Origin: Candidatus Woesearchaeota archaeon
Lineage (GTDB): Archaea > Nanobdellota > Nanobdellia > Pacearchaeales > GW2011-AR1
Reading direction: 5' to 3'
Length of the DNA stretch: 47,490 nt
Assembly: GCA_964647695.1 (NCBI GenBank)
Contig: CAZYIS010000005.1
Location: 1 to 47,490, forward strand
Below, in pieces: positions 31,602 to 39,252 of the stretch (position 1 is its first letter; each line of letters opens with the position of its first letter). A program made the position numbers and the translations under genes. The notes beneath the pieces are model-generated. The model was not told the origin of the DNA and made no database searches. It was given only the letters and a program-made list of their open reading frames with translations.

Positions 31602-33068
31602 ATGAATAAGAAAGAGACTAAAGTTGAAAAAGACAATAAAGGTCTTACGGTTAAAAAAAGTGAGAATTTCTCTGAATGGTTTACGGAAATAGTTCAGAAA
31701 GCAGAGCTTGCAGACATGAGATATAATGTTAAAGGATTCTTAGTATTTCAACCTTGGAGCGTTCTTACTATGGAAAAAATGTATGGATTTATGGAAAGAG
31801 CTTTGCAAAGAAAAGGGCACAAACCATATTATTTTCCAACAGTTATCCCTGAAAAGAACTTTAAGATTGAAGGAGACCATGTCAAGGGTTTTACTCCAGA
31901 AGTATTTTGGATAACTCAAGGGGGAGATTCTAAATTTGAAGAAAAACTTGCTCTAAGACCTACTTCAGAAACTGCGTTCTATCAAATGTTTTCATTGTGG
32001 ATAAGAAGTTATAAAGAACTACCATTTAAAACTTATCAGAGAGCAAATGTATTTAGATATGAAACTAAAGCAACTAGACCTTTTCTTAGAAGCAGAGAAT
32101 TTCATTGGATAGAAGCTCATTGTGCCCATGCTACGAAAGAGGATGCAATGAAACAAGTTTATGAAGATATGGAAACAACACAAGAAGTTCTACATGATGT
32201 TTTTGGTTTACCATTTATTTTCTTTGAAAGACCAGCATGGGATAAATTTCCAGGAGCAGATAGAACATTTGCAGCAGATGTTTTAAATCCCGATGGAAAA
32301 GTTATACAACAACCATCAACACATTTGTTAAGTCAAGACTTTTCAAAAGGATTTAATGTTACCTATAAGGACAAAAATGGAAAGGACCAACTTTGTTGGA
32401 TAACTTGTTATGGTCCAGCAATATCTAGAATTTTTGCATCGGTAGCCATCGTTCATGGAGATGATAAGGGTCTTAGATTCCCTTGGGAAATAGCGCCCTT
32501 ACAGGTAGTTATAGTTCCTATTGCTGATGATGAAAAAATATTAAAAAAAGCCAATGAACTAAAGAAAGAAATTCAAAAAATAGCCAGCGTAGAAATAGAT
32601 ACTACTGATAAAAGCGCTGGAGAAAAATTCAATCTATGGGAAATGAAGGGAGTTCCTATAAGAATTGATCTTGGATTGAAAGATATTGCTTCTAAAAAGA
32701 TTACCGTATTCAGAAGAGATATTAATAAGAAAGAACAGGTAGATGAAAAAGATTTAACTGAATATGTTAACAAAGTAGCAATAGAATCTAGTAAGAATTT
32801 AATTAAACAGGCAGATAATTTATTCAATGATAAAATAAAAGATTCTAAAGATATTAAGAGCATTAAAAAGATTATTGAAGAAGGAGGAATTGCAAGATGC
32901 AATTTCTGTTCTGTCGATAAAGATGGCGAAGCCTGTGCCGAAGTTATTGAGAAAGAAACTGGAGCTGAAGTTAGAGGAACAAAATTAGAAAAGGAAACTG
33001 CAAAAGGAAATTGCGCAATTTGTGGTGAAAAGGCAAAGGAAGTAGTCTATATTGCTAGAGCCTATTAA
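31602..33068 (+). CDS. proS: Prolyl-tRNA synthetase (archaeal/eukaryotic type)
   Basis: LRPTSET, FRYETK...FLRSREF, WEMKGVPIRI, C-terminal ARAY. Confidence 0.97.
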   Translation: MNKKETKVEKDNKGLTVKKSENFSEWFTEIVQKAELADMRYNVKGFLVFQPWSVLTMEKMYGFMERALQRKGHKPYYFPTVIPEKNFKIEGDHVKGFTPEVFWITQGGDSKFEEKLALRPTSETAFYQMFSLWIRSYKELPFKTYQRANVFRYETKATRPFLRSREFHWIEAHCAHATKEDAMKQVYEDMETTQEVLHDVFGLPFIFFERPAWDKFPGADRTFAADVLNPDGKVIQQPSTHLLSQDFSKGFNVTYKDKNGKDQLCWITCYGPAISRIFASVAIVHGDDKGLRFPWEIAPLQVVIVPIADDEKILKKANELKKEIQKIASVEIDTTDKSAGEKFNLWEMKGVPIRIDLGLKDIASKKITVFRRDINKKEQVDEKDLTEYVNKVAIESSKNLIKQADNLFNDKIKDSKDIKSIKKIIEEGGIARCNFCSVDKDGEACAEVIEKETGAEVRGTKLEKETAKGNCAICGEKAKEVVYIARAY

Positions 33069-33073
33069 TTACT

Positions 33074-34333
33074 ATGGAATTTAATTTTAATCCCGGAGAT
33101 GAAGTAAGACTTAGACTTGCTCAGGAAGAAATTGATGGAACAATACTAGAAAGTGCTGATGGGGAAATAATTCTCTTAAAACTCAAATCAGGATATAACA
33201 TTGGAATTCCAAAGGAAAATATTCTTGGAGGAAGAGCATTGAAGAAATATGTGAATGAAAATAAAAAGTATGAAGTTAAACAGAATAAGGAATTACCGAG
33301 TATTGGACTAATAATTACTGGAGGAACCATTGCTAGTAAGGCATCGCAGGCAACGGGAGGAGTTAAACCTATATCCGATGTTAACGAATTTCTTTCTTTC
33401 TATCCTGAGCTGTTGAAAATTGTAAATGTTAAAAAACTTGAAGTGCCATTTAAAATGTGGTCAGAAGATATGTCTACCGAACACTGGATTAAAATGGCTG
33501 AAGCAATTGAACCTATGCTAAAGGATGATTCGATAAAAGGAATTATTGTTTCCCATGGAACAGATACATTACATTATACGGCTGCGGCTCTTTCATTTTT
33601 TATTAAGAATTTAAATAAACCGGTTGTTTTAACCTACAGCCAGAGAAGTATTGATAGAGCATCTAGCGATGCAAATTTGAATTTGCAATGTGCGGCAAGA
33701 TTTGCCATTTCGGATTGTGCTGAAGTAGTTCTAGTAGGACATGGAACAACCAATGATGATTATTGCTATGCCCTTAGAGGAACTAAGGTAAAGAAAATGC
33801 ATTCTTCAAAGAGAGATGCGTTCAAACCAATTAACTGTGAGGCTATTGCAAAAGTATTTACTGATAAAGTGGAATTTCTTTCCAAATTTAAGGCAAAGAG
33901 CGATGTTAAACCTGAAGTAGATACTAGTTTTAGTGATAAGATTGCATTGATCAAATATTACCCTGGACAGGATCCATCCATTCTAGACTTTTATGCTCTA
34001 AAATATAAGGGGATAGTTATTGAAGGAACTGGATTGGGTCATGTGGCTAGCAATAATGCGCTAAAACCTTGGATAACTAGTCTAAAGAAACATATTAAGA
34101 ACGGATTAGTTGTTTGCATGACTAGTCAAACCATAAATGGGAGAGTAGATCCTTATGTTTATTCTACCGGAAGAGAATTGATGGATGCAGGAGTTATATT
34201 CCTAGAAGATATGTTGGCCGAGACTGCATTCGTCAAACTAGGCTATGTGCTAGGTCATTACGGATGGAAGACTAATGTTAAGGATAAAATGTTGGAAAAT
34301 ATGGCTAATGAACTGAATGATAGAATTAGCTAA
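33074..34333 (+). CDS. gatD: Glu-tRNA(Gln) amidotransferase subunit D
   Basis: KLKSGYNIG, TGGTIAS, HGTDT, SQRSIDR. Confidence 0.95.
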   Translation: MEFNFNPGDEVRLRLAQEEIDGTILESADGEIILLKLKSGYNIGIPKENILGGRALKKYVNENKKYEVKQNKELPSIGLIITGGTIASKASQATGGVKPISDVNEFLSFYPELLKIVNVKKLEVPFKMWSEDMSTEHWIKMAEAIEPMLKDDSIKGIIVSHGTDTLHYTAAALSFFIKNLNKPVVLTYSQRSIDRASSDANLNLQCAARFAISDCAEVVLVGHGTTNDDYCYALRGTKVKKMHSSKRDAFKPINCEAIAKVFTDKVEFLSKFKAKSDVKPEVDTSFSDKIALIKYYPGQDPSILDFYALKYKGIVIEGTGLGHVASNNALKPWITSLKKHIKNGLVVCMTSQTINGRVDPYVYSTGRELMDAGVIFLEDMLAETAFVKLGYVLGHYGWKTNVKDKMLENMANELNDRIS

Positions 34334-34521
34334 TAATGTCTTCTTAGAGCAGCAGTTAATTTAGATAGATTTGCGGAACCTATAGATGCTTGAGGGAGGT
34401 ACTTTCTCATTTCAATAACATCAGATTTATTCAATAGCTGGGGTGCAGAGGTATAACATTCCAATAGCCTTAGGGCTCTTTCAGTGCCTTCAAATTCAGC
34501 CATAGTTATTGATCTGACCAT
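34330..34521 (-). CDS. Small hypothetical protein
   Basis: 63-aa ORF with TTTATATA about 25 nt upstream. Confidence 0.4.
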   Translation of the reverse strand: MVRSITMAEFEGTERALRLLECYTSAPQLLNKSDVIEMRKYLPQASIGSANLSKLTAALRRHY

Positions 34522-34622: not shown

Positions 34623-35636
34623 ATGGATAATTCAGACGTAAAAGGAGATAGAGTACCCGCAGGGAATACCAAAGAAATCATTTATGTAGATCCCACTACC
34701 CAAGGATATATTGAATATTTTGATCATTTGAGAGCATTTAACGCAAAGGTACATAGAGAACTAGGGGAAGATATGGGTAAAAAATTCTCAGAATACGGTC
34801 AAGGAATTGCATTTGCTACAACTGGAAGCGACTCAAGATTAGAAAAAGGACCTGTATCCCCAGTCGAAATAGTACTTTATACCCAAGATAAAAGAGATTA
34901 TGAAACTATGTTGGCCCAACCTTTAGATCAATATCTAAAGAATAATAGAAATTATTTTCACTTAGATGGATTAGATTTGAAATTTATTGGCGCAGAAATG
35001 ATGAGTTACTTTGTAACTAATAGAGGTAAAGAAAATGAAGGTAAATTATTATCTCCTAACAGAGTATTAGATTCTACCATGTTATTTGGAGATCAGAATA
35101 TGCATAATTTGGCTAAAAGATATTTGTATCAGGAGATTAAATCATCTGATGGAAAAGCTATGGCTGATAAAATAAAAGATAAATTAAGAGGACATAAAAA
35201 GATAACATTAGAAGGAACTCAAAACTACCGAGGATTTCCACTAGAACATTTTAATTTTGAAAGTGGAATTGCCAATTATGATCCTGAGAAAAATCTGCAA
35301 TCATTTAAACAGGGACCTTTGAGAACAACACAATATGCATTGGTTAATGGTGTCTGTACAATGATTAGAAGAGGAGATGATGAGTCATTAATTTCTAGTT
35401 TGCCATCTAATACCATAGACAAAATACATGCATTGGAAGTTGAAGGCAAGACTGGATTGTCTCAACAGAATATACGTGAATTATCGGATAACTATAAATT
35501 CTTTTTATGGCTATATCATAAATCTCAACATGCCTATAGAACTAGTGGAATAACCCAAACTGGATTTGATAGTGGAGAAGCTAAAGAAAGAGCAAAGAGT
35601 TTAACCAGCATCTGTTCTGAACAGATTGTAAAATAA
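34623..35636 (+). CDS. Putative GlnD/DUF294-like nucleotidyltransferase
   Basis: FATTGSDSRLE...SPVEIVLY resembles GS..R.E...SD.D; SFKQGPLRTTQ resembles the substrate-binding helix K.g.LR..q. Confidence 0.55.
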   Translation: MDNSDVKGDRVPAGNTKEIIYVDPTTQGYIEYFDHLRAFNAKVHRELGEDMGKKFSEYGQGIAFATTGSDSRLEKGPVSPVEIVLYTQDKRDYETMLAQPLDQYLKNNRNYFHLDGLDLKFIGAEMMSYFVTNRGKENEGKLLSPNRVLDSTMLFGDQNMHNLAKRYLYQEIKSSDGKAMADKIKDKLRGHKKITLEGTQNYRGFPLEHFNFESGIANYDPEKNLQSFKQGPLRTTQYALVNGVCTMIRRGDDESLISSLPSNTIDKIHALEVEGKTGLSQQNIRELSDNYKFFLWLYHKSQHAYRTSGITQTGFDSGEAKERAKSLTSICSEQIVK

Positions 35637-35637
35637 A

Positions 35638-36438
35638 ATGGTCAATCAAATACTTGTGGATAGAATAATTGTAAATGAAATAGGAAATAAACTAATAGCA
35701 TTAAGAGAAAGAAAAGGCAGTATATTCTATTCTCTTTTAAGATCAAATAGTAGAGATGCATTAGAAAGAGAAGCCATACTTCATTCTTATAAAATAGAAA
35801 ATCCGGGTGAGCCCATCGATGAAGCTACAAAGTTTAAATGCCATCCATCTAGACGAGCCATAAAAAAAGGAGTAAAAAGTTTGAGTGATGCATTTAATTG
35901 GGGAGTAAAAAATTTTGATCCTAAAAAATTTAATAAAACTTATGTTGAAGAAATAGCTAAAAGAATAAATCCTAAGGGATATCCTGACGGTGGAAGAGGA
36001 TACAGAACTGAAAGAGCGATGGTTAAAGGAGTTAATGAAGAGAGAGTTATGCCTAGTGATATATCTTGGGAAATGGATTTATATTGTGAAAATATAAGTG
36101 AAATGCTAGAAAAAGGAACATTGATCATGGCTCTTGAAGCAGCAGCCTATGCTCACCTGCATCTTGCAAGAATACACCCATTTGAAGATGGAAATGGTAG
36201 AACAACGAGAGCATTACAGAATATAATTCTGGATAGAAACAATTTGCCGCCGGTAATAATTTTTGGTGGAGAAAGATATGAATATTATGCTCACCTGCAG
36301 GGAGCTATTGATGACTGGAATGCTTATGGAAAGCATGATAAATCTCAAAGACCCAATACGCCTACTAGAGAAAATGATTTTTATAATTTTATGGCTGGAA
36401 GGGTCTCTTCCTCATTAGATAGGATTATAGGTAAATAA
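35638..36438 (+). CDS. Fic-domain protein
   Basis: HPFEDGNGRTTR; N-terminal SYKIEN inhibitory motif. Confidence 0.92.
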   Translation: MVNQILVDRIIVNEIGNKLIALRERKGSIFYSLLRSNSRDALEREAILHSYKIENPGEPIDEATKFKCHPSRRAIKKGVKSLSDAFNWGVKNFDPKKFNKTYVEEIAKRINPKGYPDGGRGYRTERAMVKGVNEERVMPSDISWEMDLYCENISEMLEKGTLIMALEAAAYAHLHLARIHPFEDGNGRTTRALQNIILDRNNLPPVIIFGGERYEYYAHLQGAIDDWNAYGKHDKSQRPNTPTRENDFYNFMAGRVSSSLDRIIGK

Positions 36439-36439
36439 A

Positions 36440-37231
36440 ATGGTTAGCAGAAACTTTATCGATGGCAGAATATTAAATGAAATAAAAAGTAAAAAAGAAC
36501 AATTGGATTCATGTAACCACTGTGTTATAAAGAATGCTATTAAAAGATATAAAGAAAATTGTATCGAAAATGAAGCAACATTACATTCATTTAGAATAGA
36601 GCATGATTCTCAGTTTTTTAGAACTGATTATAATACTCATGCAAGTAAAAGAACCATAAGAAAAGGAGCAAGTAATATAAAACATGCAATGATTTGGGGA
36701 TTGAGAAATATAAATTTGCATAAATTTGATGAAGCGTTTGTTAAAGAAATAGCAGTAAAATCAGCACCAGAAGTATTTATGAGTGATTTAGGATATTATA
36801 GGACTGATAAAGCCAAAGTAATAGGTTCTGATTGGACTCCTCCAGAAGCAATAAAAGTACCCAGAGATATGAAAAGATTTACTCAATTTATAACTTGGAA
36901 TACTGATAAGGAGGATATTTCTACAGTTATAGAATCAGCAATATATGCTCATCTACATCTAGTAAGAATACATCCATTTGAAGATGGGAATGGAAGAACT
37001 GCAAGAACATTGCAAAATGTTATATTAGAATCTGTAGGATTGCCTCCTCCAATTATTTATGCTGGAGAAAGGCATGATTATTATGGACATTTACAAAATG
37101 CAATAAATGGATGGAGAGACAGAACTGGATCGGATAGCGATCAAATTGGAGATTCGCCTGCTGAAAATTCATTCTATGATTATATGGCTGGAAAAATATC
37201 TGCTTCATTGGATCGAGTTTTGAATAGATAA
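36440..37231 (+). CDS. Fic-domain protein (paralogue)
   Basis: HPFEDGNGRTAR; SFRIEH. Confidence 0.92.
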   Translation: MVSRNFIDGRILNEIKSKKEQLDSCNHCVIKNAIKRYKENCIENEATLHSFRIEHDSQFFRTDYNTHASKRTIRKGASNIKHAMIWGLRNINLHKFDEAFVKEIAVKSAPEVFMSDLGYYRTDKAKVIGSDWTPPEAIKVPRDMKRFTQFITWNTDKEDISTVIESAIYAHLHLVRIHPFEDGNGRTARTLQNVILESVGLPPPIIYAGERHDYYGHLQNAINGWRDRTGSDSDQIGDSPAENSFYDYMAGKISASLDRVLNR

Positions 37232-37265
37232 TAACTTTTAATAACCTGTATTCTTAATTAAAAGA

Positions 37266-38717
37266 ATGGTATCGAACATAGATTATGGAAAAATAGGATT
37301 TAAGTCAGGTCTAGAGATACATCAGCAGTTGGACACTGGAAAGTTATTCTGTAAATGCCCTGGTTACTTGCGTAGCGATGAACCTCATTTTTCCATTAGA
37401 AGGAAACTTCATAAAATAGCTGGAGAAAGTGGAAAAGTAGATATTGCAGTTGAACACGAAGCAGCACTGGATAAGGAATTTATCTATCAAGGATATAATG
37501 ATTCTACTTGTTTAGTGGAAATAGATGAAGAACCTCCTAAAGAAATTAATGAAGAAGCGATTGATGAAGTTCTTAAGATGGCCATTCTTATGAATTGTGA
37601 AATTTATCCCTGCGCTCAGATAATGAGAAAAACAGTTATTGATGGTAGTAATACTTCAGGATTCCAAAGAACTGTGCTAATTGCCCATGATGGATATATT
37701 GAAACAAGTTTTGGAAAAGTTCCAATCGAATCCATTGCACTTGAAGAAGATGCAGCAAGAACAATTTCTAGAAATGAGAAAAGCGCAACCTATAGATTGG
37801 ATAGATTAGGAATTCCTCTAGTTGAAATTGGAACAAAACCAGTAATGCAAAATCCAGAACAGATAAAAGAAGCCGCACTTAAAATTGGAGAAATTGTTAG
37901 AGCCTGCAAAGTTAAAAGAGGAATAGGAACCATAAGACAGGACGTTAATGTAAGCATTAAGGGACATGATAGAGTTGAAATTAAAGGTTTCCAGGATCCT
38001 AGTATGATGGTTATGACTGCTAATATGGAAATAGAAAGACAGCAGGAAGACATTAAAAATGATAAGACGGAAAGCAGTGTTAGAAACGCATTGCCCAATG
38101 GAACTACTGAATTCTTGAGACCACTTCCAGGAGGAGCAAGAATGTATCCGGAGACGGATCTGCCTTTGTTATATATTGGTAGAGATAGAATAAATAAAAT
38201 AAAGAAAAATCTTCCAAAATTAAAAGAAGAAATAATGGCTGAACTTAAGAAGAAAGGATTGAATGGGGAATCTATATCATTAATATTAGATAATAATAAG
38301 GTGGATGAATTTGACGCTCTTGTTAAGATAAATAGAAAAGACGCTAATCTTATTGCAAAGATGATTGTTCTATGGCCCAATGAATTTGCTTCTAAGAATA
38401 AGAAAAGCTATGATGAAATAAGAGAAATTCTAACCGAAGCAGTGTTGGAAAAAGTTTTAATCGCTTACACGGAAAATAAAATTGGCGATGGAGATATTAA
38501 ACCAGTAATGAATAAAATTGTCTCTGGAACAGCTGTTGAATCTGCTTTGATAATTGAAAAGACCGACGATAATGCTCTGGAGCAGGAAATTGTCAAAATA
38601 GTAAATGAGAAACCAGGACTACGATCTGGAGCCTATATGGGTCTGATTATAGGAAAACTTGGAGCCAATGTGGATAAGAGAAAGGCCATGGAAATTCTTA
38701 ATAAACTGGTAAAATAG
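37266..38717 (+). CDS. gatE: Glu-tRNA(Gln) amidotransferase subunit E (short form)
   Basis: GLEIHQQL, MRKTVIDGSNTSGFQRT, RGIGTIRQD, RMYPETD. Confidence 0.95.
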   Translation: MVSNIDYGKIGFKSGLEIHQQLDTGKLFCKCPGYLRSDEPHFSIRRKLHKIAGESGKVDIAVEHEAALDKEFIYQGYNDSTCLVEIDEEPPKEINEEAIDEVLKMAILMNCEIYPCAQIMRKTVIDGSNTSGFQRTVLIAHDGYIETSFGKVPIESIALEEDAARTISRNEKSATYRLDRLGIPLVEIGTKPVMQNPEQIKEAALKIGEIVRACKVKRGIGTIRQDVNVSIKGHDRVEIKGFQDPSMMVMTANMEIERQQEDIKNDKTESSVRNALPNGTTEFLRPLPGGARMYPETDLPLLYIGRDRINKIKKNLPKLKEEIMAELKKKGLNGESISLILDNNKVDEFDALVKINRKDANLIAKMIVLWPNEFASKNKKSYDEIREILTEAVLEKVLIAYTENKIGDGDIKPVMNKIVSGTAVESALIIEKTDDNALEQEIVKIVNEKPGLRSGAYMGLIIGKLGANVDKRKAMEILNKLVK

Positions 38718-38751: not shown

Positions 38752-39252
38752 ATGGTAGCATATGATTCAAAGACTAAGCAAGGTAAATGTATATTCTGTG
38801 AAATTGCTAGTGGAAGAATGCAACCTATGGGTAATGGAAAGTTCTGGGAAAATGATAAATATATGGCATTTTTATCTCCATTCCCTAATACTCCTGGATT
38901 TACCGTATTAATAACTAAAGAACATTATCAAAGTGATGTTTTACAAATGCCGGACAAGGAATTAAGTGGTTTTGTTCTGGAAGCTAAAAAAATAGCTAAG
39001 CATCTAGTAGAAAAATTAGATGATGTGGGAAGAGTTGGACTAATTATGGAAGGAACGGGAATAAATCATGCACATATAAAATTAGTTCCTATGACTGGAA
39101 CGGGATATATGAAAACTGGAGAATGGAAACAGGTTCATAGTTCAGTAAATACCTATTTTGCTAAATATGATGGATGGATTGCTTCTAACGACGGCCCTAG
39201 GGCTGATGATTCAAAATTGGCTGAATTGGCTAAGAAATTAAGTATAAAATAA
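38752..39252 (+). CDS. HIT-family hydrolase
   Basis: CIFCEI, PFPNTPG, HAHIK variant triad. Confidence 0.88.
   Translation: MVAYDSKTKQGKCIFCEIASGRMQPMGNGKFWENDKYMAFLSPFPNTPGFTVLITKEHYQSDVLQMPDKELSGFVLEAKKIAKHLVEKLDDVGRVGLIMEGTGINHAHIKLVPMTGTGYMKTGEWKQVHSSVNTYFAKYDGWIASNDGPRADDSKLAELAKKLSIK

Follow-up and report, generated by a model that had tools for sequence, protein, structure and literature searches.

Three kinds of protein, GlnE, DrrA and FICD, are known to add or remove adenosine monophosphate (AMP). In FICD, the same inhibitory glutamate toggles between AMP addition and AMP removal, and an (S/T)xxxE(G/N) helix in the same chain as the catalytic core is the defining trait of class II Fic proteins, a classification said to be that of Engel and colleagues in 2012. 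SoFic is reportedly a single-gene defence, as told by Millman and colleagues in 2022. We consider here three adjacent genes, a nucleotidyltransferase-like gene (gene 1) followed by two Fic genes (FicA and FicB), that lie between gatD and gatE on contig CAZYIS010000005.1 of a Candidatus Woesearchaeota archaeon (assembly GCA_964647695.1, a genome of 708 kb in 25 contigs, 89% complete); the whole stretch that was analysed, 47,490 nucleotides, is called the window. The reading that we prefer, at somewhat less than even odds (about 0.45), is that these are modular protein-nucleotidylation genes in a variable gatD-gatE slot, where a later-added gene of DrrA/GlnE fold stands beside long-resident, autoinhibited Fic AMPylases, and that they form no fixed three-gene machine. 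The features of the three genes, and the two genes that border the slot, are:

33074..34333, + strand: gatD, upstream border of the slot (Pfam Asparaginase, Asparaginase_C and GatD_N)
34623..35636, + strand: gene 1, 337 amino acids, a stand-alone DrrA/GlnE/DUF294-fold nucleotidyltransferase-like protein
34824..34868, + strand: motif GSDSRLEKGPVSPVE of gene 1, residues 68-82, with a Gly-Ser turn and a degenerate DxD (Pro80, Glu82)
34974..34982, + strand: Asp118-x-Lys120 of gene 1, a candidate third carboxylate in a predicted beta-strand (118-122)
35631..35642, + strand: junction 1, AAATAAAATGGT, made of the gene 1 stop, one base and the FicA start
35638..36438, + strand: FicA, 266 amino acids, a class-II-type Fic protein (Pfam Fic)
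35785..35802, + strand: inhibitory-type motif SYKIEN of FicA, residues 50-55, read from the sequence
36175..36210, + strand: catalytic motif HPFEDGNGRTTR of FicA, residues 180-191
36433..36444, + strand: junction 2, AAATAAAATGGT, made of the FicA stop, one base and the FicB start
36440..37231, + strand: FicB, 263 amino acids, a class-II-type Fic protein (Pfam Fic)
36587..36604, + strand: inhibitory-type motif SFRIEH of FicB, residues 50-55, read from the sequence
36971..37006, + strand: catalytic motif HPFEDGNGRTAR of FicB, residues 178-189
37266..38717, + strand: gatE, downstream border of the slot, 34 nucleotides past FicB (Pfam GatB_N)

FicA and FicB align end to end at 38% identity (E 2e-65), and both match the Pfam family Fic (PF02661), with 45.2 and 55.4 bits respectively against a gathering cut-off of 24. 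Each contains a complete HPFEDGNGRTxR, in agreement with the Fic/Fido motif HxFx(D/E)GN(G/K)RxxR; the wording HPFx[D/E]GN[G/K]R is that of the part of PMC2686095 on which we draw. In both proteins, an inhibitory-type motif stands in the same chain, about 125 residues upstream of the catalytic motif. Compared with the class II pattern (S/T)xxxE(G/N), the motif SYKIEN of FicA matches fully, and SFRIEH of FicB keeps the Ser and the Glu, its last residue being His and not Gly or Asn. Residues S50 and E54 are invariant among 54 aligned members of the subfamily, whose consensus is HSxxIExP. The description that a first-pass annotation of the locus had given of these paralogues, aligned from end to end, with a full catalytic motif and an inhibitory-type motif near the N-terminus, is thus accurate. 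Judged by these residues, both Fic proteins look catalytically complete, with an intramolecular inhibitory glutamate.

The nearest solved chains by sequence are FICD homologues, at E 5e-15 for FicB and E 1.3e-12 for FicA. With FICD/HYPE, class II Fic proteins and SoFic, the two proteins share the HPFxDGNGRxxR core and the Ser-x3-Glu in the same chain. They differ from FICD in being only 263-266 amino acids long, without a TPR or membrane part, and from class II Fic proteins in that the residue after the Glu is variable and then followed by Pro in their subfamily, instead of being Gly or Asn; they are also archaeal, and a tandem pair. The PADLOC model for SoFic (PDLC03963) matches FicA at E 2e-16 and FicB at E 2.8e-21, and PDC-S04 candidates were returned as well. 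The SoFic match is partial: the aligned part of the profile takes in the inhibitory region and the core, over positions 57-250 and 64-243 of 361, but positions 251-361 are unmatched, the C-terminal domain being absent. The PADLOC check proposed by the earlier annotation gave no full-length match to SoFic for either Fic protein, and nothing for gene 1.

The gene 1 protein has no match in Pfam, NCBIfam or PADLOC (0 Pfam families at E 0.1); the curated models PF03710, PF03445, PF10335, PF08335 and PF20879 were all without a match to it at E 0.1, and searches of the PDB with phmmer and with a small profile returned chance matches only. Its relatives number 394 at E 0.001 among representatives clustered at 50% identity, the best homologue anywhere is 48% identical, and 16 of 121 relatives have weak DUF294 (PF03445) matches, the best at E 7.4e-5. 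An AlphaFold2 model based on a 121-row alignment reached a predicted local distance difference test score (pLDDT) of 94.4 and a predicted template modelling score of 0.92; a fold computed from the single sequence, with a pLDDT of 32.6, was unusable and was discarded. Alignment of the model to solved structures with VIA-align gave the following matches, with root-mean-square deviations:

DrrA AMPylation domain, 6yx5_B: Z 19.2, 3.7 A over 271 residues
GlnE C-terminal half, 3k7d_B: Z 17.4, 4.0 A over 272 residues
GlnE N-terminal half, 1v4a_A: Z 17.0, 4.3 A over 280 residues
Next match, a HEPN domain, to the C-terminal half of gene 1 only: Z 7.8

Foldseek matches 3k7d_A at E 4.9e-6 and 6yx5_B at E 1.7e-5, with a probability of 1.00, and the nearest Atlas clusters are DUF294, DUF294_C, GlnD_UR_UTase and SidM_N, with scores of 0.91-0.94 and template modelling (TM) scores of 0.60-0.70. 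The confident model thus predicts a GlnE/DrrA/DUF294-type fold, that is, a Pol-beta nucleotidyltransferase domain followed by a helical substrate-binding domain. Absence of the Pol-beta fold had been named in advance as a reason to abandon the first interpretation of the locus; the structural matches to DrrA and to both halves of GlnE show the opposite.

The active site is where gene 1 departs from these enzymes. The motif GSDSRLEKGPVSPVE stands at the place where MNT/DUF294-type enzymes carry GSxxRxExxxxSDxD. The profile of the gene 1 family, GSDgRlEKgpaSplEl, aligns to GSqaRaEakTDSDIDf of the nucleotidyltransferase 9xbd_E with E 0.0018, and the register is therefore fixed: Pro80 corresponds to the first Asp of DxD, and Glu82 to the second. 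Gene 1 does not contain the pattern G-[GS]-x9-13-D-x-[DE] with both carboxylates, since G68 and S69 are present but position 80 is a Pro. Among the 121 relatives, position 80 is non-acidic in 111 (P42, K21, L19, R8, E5, D5), and position 82 is E112, D8 and A1. Residues G68, S69, R72 and E74 are invariant in 121 of 121 relatives, K229 and Y291 are invariant too, and D70 and D150 nearly so. Position 118 is acidic in 115 of the 121 (E100, D15), with K100 and R13 at position 120. In an hhalign alignment of the family profile to the single sequence of E. coli GlnE, which is not significant alone (E 0.091) and was used for register only, Asp118-x-Lys120 falls opposite the D-x-R of GlnE, and the Gly-Ser, Glu and Ser of gene 1 line up with GG-x-E-L-x3-S-D-x-D.

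These column counts indicate that the fold and much of the cleft are conserved, and that the canonical two-metal site is not. As far as alignment can tell, the Gly-Ser turn is retained in gene 1 along with two carboxylates of the canonical three, the first Asp being lost, perhaps with Asp70 standing in for it; the protein probably binds a nucleotide with altered metal chemistry. The earlier annotation had recognized a GlnD/GlnE/DUF294-like signature with an altered DxD; the 9xbd_E alignment and the column counts confirm the alteration, and Foldseek, VIA-align and the Atlas point to a fold of GlnE/DrrA/DUF294 type.

The best structural match of gene 1, the N-terminal AMPylation domain of DrrA/SidM of Legionella, has the same succession of a nucleotidyltransferase and a helical domain (Foldseek TM 0.54). 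However, gene 1 is only 11% identical to it, has neither the guanine nucleotide exchange factor domain nor the P4M domain, stands in no secretion context, and has the first Asp of G-x11-D-x-D replaced. The part of a 2015 survey used here describes DrrA-like proteins as rare and confined to Legionella (PMC4454073), whereas the gene 1 family is found, by label, in DPANN archaea and in bacteria of the candidate phyla radiation (CPR). Both halves of GlnE match gene 1 over 272-280 residues, but gene 1 is a single domain pair and not a duplicated bifunctional enzyme, has no Pfam GlnE match, and carries Pro and Glu at the place of the Asp-x-Asp. Of the open reading frames listed for 31-41 kb, none was seen to encode glutamine synthetase or PII. 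With the DUF294/GlnD-type nucleotidyltransferases (PF03445, PF10335, PF08335), whose Atlas clusters are the nearest, gene 1 shares the spacing GSxxRxE-x4-S-x-x-acid; it lacks their CBS, cNMP, HD and ACT partner domains, and the first catalytic Asp is lost family-wide. There is finally a likeness to HEPN/MNT modules: the N-terminal half is MNT-like (7ae2_B, Z 6.0; 8xeh_E, Z 5.0) and the C-terminal half HEPN-like (2hsb, Z 7.8; 8xdj, Z 6.4), in a range of Z that is common for helical bundles. Those modules consist of two genes, whereas gene 1 is one fused chain like GlnE and DrrA. In the part of PMC3710099 that we use, the C-terminal domains of GlnD, GlnE and DUF294 are HEPN-related and DrrA is a fusion of nucleotidyltransferase and HEPN.

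We examined 50 genome loci that contain relatives of gene 1. By the depositors' own labels, DPANN archaea and CPR bacteria make up most of them; the counts are 18 Woesearchaeota, 5 Nanoarchaeota, Nanoarchaeia or Nanobdellota, 7 Micrarchaeota, 8 "uncultured Methanosarcinales", 9 from CPR/Patescibacteria groups, 2 "uncultured Gammaproteobacteria" and 1 "uncultured bacterium". Four loci hold tandem pairs of gene 1 relatives (L020, L023, L027 and L040, Micrarchaeota and Woesearchaeota by label). The genes of the window themselves have their nearest public relatives under the labels Woesearchaeota/Nanoarchaeota, which places them among the DPANN.

The first-pass annotation had read the three genes as one system, a switch with several conceivable uses, and had noted the identical junctions. 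The observation itself is sound: the three open reading frames are co-oriented on the + strand between gatD and gatE, and the 12 nucleotides of AAATAAAATGGT have exactly two copies in the window, at positions 35631 and 36433, where 0.06 copies are expected by shuffling and two were reached in 0 of 100 shuffles. Both copies, however, are the head of a direct repeat of 61 nucleotides, 70% identical, with a spacing of 802 nucleotides, and a second direct repeat, of 92 nucleotides and 79% identity, covers the Fic catalytic motifs with a spacing of 796. The junctions are thus identical because one Fic unit was duplicated in tandem together with its upstream junction, and they need not be a signal. 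By its sequence, the FicA/FicB pair is a lineage-specific tandem duplication that has kept the catalytic and inhibitory residues. With spacers of 1 nucleotide, the three genes probably lie on one shared transcript.

The gene order is not an artefact of assembly, since contigs from three other public runs (X2 record 4, X3 record 14, X4 record 22), which may stem from one sampling campaign, run from the end of gene 1 through FicA and FicB into the start of gatE and show 0 differences. A contig joint from 35699 to 38217 was disregarded, its shorter side having only 23 letters. The GC content is flat over the region of the insert, at 0.30-0.37, and no flanking repeats or mobile-element marks were found around it.

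If the three genes formed an obligate triad, writer and eraser or enzyme and regulator, in which gene 1 and the Fic proteins share a target or act on one another, FicA and FicB perhaps forming a heterodimer, they should be found together elsewhere. We searched about 6 kb on either side of the gene 1 relatives, by tblastn with FicA and FicB and with a hidden Markov model (HMM) of 45 Fic sequences on six-frame segments of at least 80 amino acids: a Fic gene is present at only one of the 50 other loci, L005. This locus is a syntenic relative of the window (GatD 70% and GatE 63% identical) with one Fic only, and its order differs: proS, gatD, an epimerase, a frame of 153 amino acids, Fic, the gene 1 relative, gatE, aspS. 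Elsewhere, the neighbours of gene 1 are varied housekeeping genes with no recurrent partner (Pfam, first 25 loci, 125 of 250 proteins). A search of 60 related genomes with completeness of 61-98%, of which 16 belong to the same genus, did not find gene 1 itself. On these counts the three-gene set does not recur in unrelated genomes, and the claim of a single switch is not supported. Co-folding of gene 1 with FicA and with FicB gave a score of 0.00, which counts neither for nor against binding.

Metagenomic data hold orthologues of both Fic proteins, P0180, 69% identical to FicA, and P0160, 78% identical to FicB, with the motifs kept in both. The longest contig listed is 10,639 nucleotides for each, and the FicA/FicB pair may therefore be kept together there. 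A metagenome scan with FicB yielded generic Fic genes only, the pattern of the catalytic motif being dominant. That the best homologue of gene 1 reaches 48%, against 78% for the FicB orthologue, is a hint, short of proof, that gene 1 is missing from the closest relative.

We now turn to the slot in relatives. A survey of 90 genomes of the same archaeal family, about one per genus, found both gatD and gatE in 87, co-linear on one contig in 67. In these 67 genomes the two genes are separated by 62 nucleotides to 66 kb, with less than 100 nucleotides between them in only 2 cases. We examined the 62 gaps of 0.4-7.4 kb (loci L084-L145), with Pfam run on 150 of 152 open reading frames of at least 100 amino acids. 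Twelve of the 62 contain a Fic gene, each time as the nearest co-oriented frame of at least 100 amino acids upstream of gatE; 9 of the 12 lie within about 120 nucleotides of gatE, and in L114, L122 and L134 other frames intervene. The HMM of gene 1 matched in 0 of the 62 gaps, even at E 10, so that 12 gaps have Fic without gene 1. Adding the window, L005 and three further genomes of the family found in a phylum-wide Fic search (G309, G166 and G297) brings to 17 the genomes that have a Fic gene in the gatD-gatE interval or immediately before gatE. That search found a Fic match in 237 of 401 genomes, a tally that includes one unpublished genome (G418), on which nothing else said here depends.

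Other occupants of the slot are numerous. The nearest co-oriented frames of at least 100 amino acids before gatE fall into 24 BLAST clusters in 54 genomes, of which Fic is the largest with 12 members, followed by an unnamed cluster of 7, another of 4, and an RNA ligase in 3. On the opposite strand, DUF1003 is found in 32 of the 62 gaps; the window has no remnant of it. The further occupants, several of them identified by weak matches, include MazF (L141), PIN (L145), an AbiEii-type nucleotidyltransferase (L125, 23.8 bits against a cut-off of 22.5), small Pol-beta nucleotidyltransferases (L099, L127) and phosphoribosyltransferases; there are also an epimerase, a glycosyltransferase, CorA and a chaperonin. 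The unnamed family of 7, about 270 amino acids long, lies before gatE in seven genera (L094:242-1060, L100, L103, L105, L115, L124 and L140) and has no Pfam or PADLOC match; an Atlas feature lead, with a score of 0.94 and 170 shared features, points to HipA-like kinases. The RNA-ligase-family gene (PF09414) is directly before gatE in three genera (L120:187-999, L135:203-1015, L141:3072-3902). As for gene 1, its relatives are at or near gatD or gatE in 6 of the 50 loci: L005, L006, L013 and L019 in or beside the slot, and L023 and L040, both Micrarchaeota, near gatDE. The last two share a study code in their isolate labels, and may be a single event.

The history of the slot Fic genes can be traced further. 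A tree of 27 Fic proteins contains a clade of 9 (support 98/98), made of FicA, FicB, the slot Fic proteins of G005, L005, G460, G026 and G309, and two Fic proteins from outside the slot, and a separate clade of 6 (support 100/98), all of whose members are slot genes of the same archaeal family. Altogether, 13 of the 15 genes of both clades sit at the slot. In the larger clade, the only Fic of G005 and that of L005 fall together with FicB, and FicA comes out as their sister with weak support; on the evidence of the tree, FicB is orthologous to the Fic gene that relatives carry upstream of gatE. Its closest genomic orthologues are in G005 (L126:1663-2454), with HPFNDTNGR, and in L005 (5109-5903), with HPFIDCNGR: the first Gly of GNGR is Thr or Cys in these two proteins, and is kept in the window copies and in the metagenomic orthologues. 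In the clade of 6, the catalytic His is replaced by Gln in the motif IQPFxxGNKR, and the N-terminal motif reads YSFWIENPxLR; these proteins are probably non-catalytic, to judge from the motif. Their genes, located within the gatD-gatE gap or immediately before gatE, are:

L118:267-1049
L143:4052-4870
L065:1483-2262
L130:180-947
L114:610-1419
L117:1101-1937

Within each clade, the distances between Fic proteins correlate with the distances between the GatE proteins of the same genomes (r 0.68, Mantel p 0.055; r 0.75, p 0.041), on small samples of 6 genomes each in which related genomes are not independent. Across the clades there is no correlation (r -0.01), and both clades split along the same two GatE groups. 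Co-divergence within the clades and the shared split of GatE fit two old Fic paralogues beside gatE in the ancestor of the family, followed by differential loss.

In the modular reading, FicA and FicB would be FICD-like Fic AMP-transferases that arose by an old tandem duplication, each equipped with both a catalytic His motif and an inhibitory Glu helix. They would likely stay off until the Glu is displaced, and then transfer AMP onto a cytoplasmic target; by analogy with FICD, this Glu might serve for the removal of AMP as well. Synteny and co-divergence indicate that FicB descends from a Fic upstream of gatE that predates the split of the genera of the family, and gene 1 would have entered the slot separately, as a protein that may work without Fic elsewhere.

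Several points weigh against this reading. The coupling of three genes by spacers of 1 nucleotide is also what is expected of a complex or a pathway. In L005, a gene 1 relative has a FicB-type gene as its neighbour at this very site, and the two may be functionally paired in this sub-lineage. The absence of gene 1 from relatives was observed in incomplete metagenome-assembled genomes (61-100% complete), with one genome per species or genus, and the tests of co-divergence bear on 6 genomes each, with p near 0.05.

Two rivals are live. The stronger, although we consider it unlikely, is that the slot is a conflict hotspot where growth-arresting enzymes gather and the three genes a toxin-like or anti-virus cassette, in which the Fic pair, in the manner of SoFic, would AMPylate an essential host or viral protein upon infection or stress, with gene 1 as effector or modulator. 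The SoFic and PDC-S04 matches, the presence of MazF, PIN, AbiEii-type and small Pol-beta nucleotidyltransferases in the slot, the lead to HipA-like kinases and the strong turnover of occupants all go in this direction. However, the SoFic profile is only partly covered and gene 1 is without a PADLOC match, mobile-element marks are missing around the insert, the slot also holds plain housekeeping occupants (DUF1003, the epimerase, glycosyltransferase, CorA and chaperonin), and the slot Fic seems to have been passed down vertically across the divergence of the family, as defence cargo seldom is.

The second rival, a shade more doubtful, is that Fic, with gene 1 where it is present, modifies GatD, GatE or another part of the synthesis of Gln-tRNA(Gln), as a nucleotidylation throttle on translation that is co-expressed with gatE. 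It draws on the recurrence of slot Fic in 17 genomes, mostly close to gatE, on their co-divergence with gatE, on the position of 6 of the 50 gene 1 loci, two Micrarchaeota included, and on the His-less Fic proteins, whose retention at the slot in 6 genomes suggests a binding role. On the other hand, about 80% of the sampled genera have another gene or none before gatE, adjacency may reflect mere descent in place, the two Micrarchaeota loci may count as one, and gatE may have its own promoter, in view of an AT-rich promoter-like box 24 nucleotides before it. We know of no Fic target in the Gln-tRNA(Gln) pathway, and no paper on a link between Fic and GatD or GatE was found in the literature searched. 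The earlier suggestion of a link to GatDE therefore stands in part: the position does recur, more for Fic than for gene 1, but nothing ties it to glutamine sensing.

A broader conjecture, which we hold to be rather improbable, would make the position before gatE a dedicated seat for enzymes that nucleotidylate or phosphorylate the aminoacyl-tRNA machinery. Both active and His-less Fic proteins would then have come down with gatE since the origin of the family, controlling the synthesis of Gln-tRNA(Gln) by AMPylation or by binding GatDE, and other lineages would have swapped in, to the same end, a DrrA/GlnE-fold enzyme whose metal site has been rebuilt, MNT/AbiEii-type nucleotidyltransferases, an RNA ligase or a HipA-like kinase. 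Least supported, and very improbable, is the obligate triad: its same-strand, 1-nucleotide junctions, the AMP chemistry of both enzyme kinds, the adjacency in L005 and the possibly maintained FicA/FicB pair are set against junctions explained by duplication, a single co-occurrence in 50 loci and slots where Fic does without gene 1.

The remaining features of the region concern the neighbours. On the + strand, the order is proS, gatD, a gap of 289 nucleotides, gene 1, FicA, FicB, gatE, a HIT-family gene and aspS, with the outer genes located as follows:

31602-33068, + strand: proS, upstream neighbour of gatD
38752-39252: HIT-family gene, between gatE and aspS

HIT enzymes have AMP-linked substrates; in L005, the place of this gene is taken by an unrelated open reading frame of 113 amino acids. 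The GatE of the window is short, with 483 amino acids and GatB_N (residues 14-309) as its sole Pfam match. Most members of the family have a GatE of about 480 amino acids, and three genomes have open frames of 601-635 amino acids; a GatE from Micrarchaeota (L023, 598 amino acids) additionally matches the GAD insertion and the GatB_Yqey tail. In the gap that follows gatD, an antisense open reading frame of 63 amino acids on the - strand (34330-34521) is probably spurious: it has no family match, and no relative in any of the loci compared. No Rfam family was found in 30-42 kb.

The modular reading carries a caution for the interpretation of operons, since tight and identical junctions can come from duplication and from stacking in a variable slot, and not from a conserved system. 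The DrrA/GlnE fold, thought to be rare outside GlnE and Legionella in those parts of the literature on which we draw, has here a sizeable unnamed branch, with 394 clusters at 50% identity in DPANN and CPR; no relevant paper on DrrA/GlnE-like enzymes in DPANN or Patescibacteria/CPR was found in the literature searched. This branch systematically lacks the first catalytic Asp, yet many other polar residues are invariant in it, which suggests a changed chemistry. As to the Fic proteins, no target of an archaeal member is known to us. Their retention beside gatE across genera, sometimes without the catalytic His, would thus offer a first concrete candidate pathway for a cytoplasmic role of Fic in archaea.

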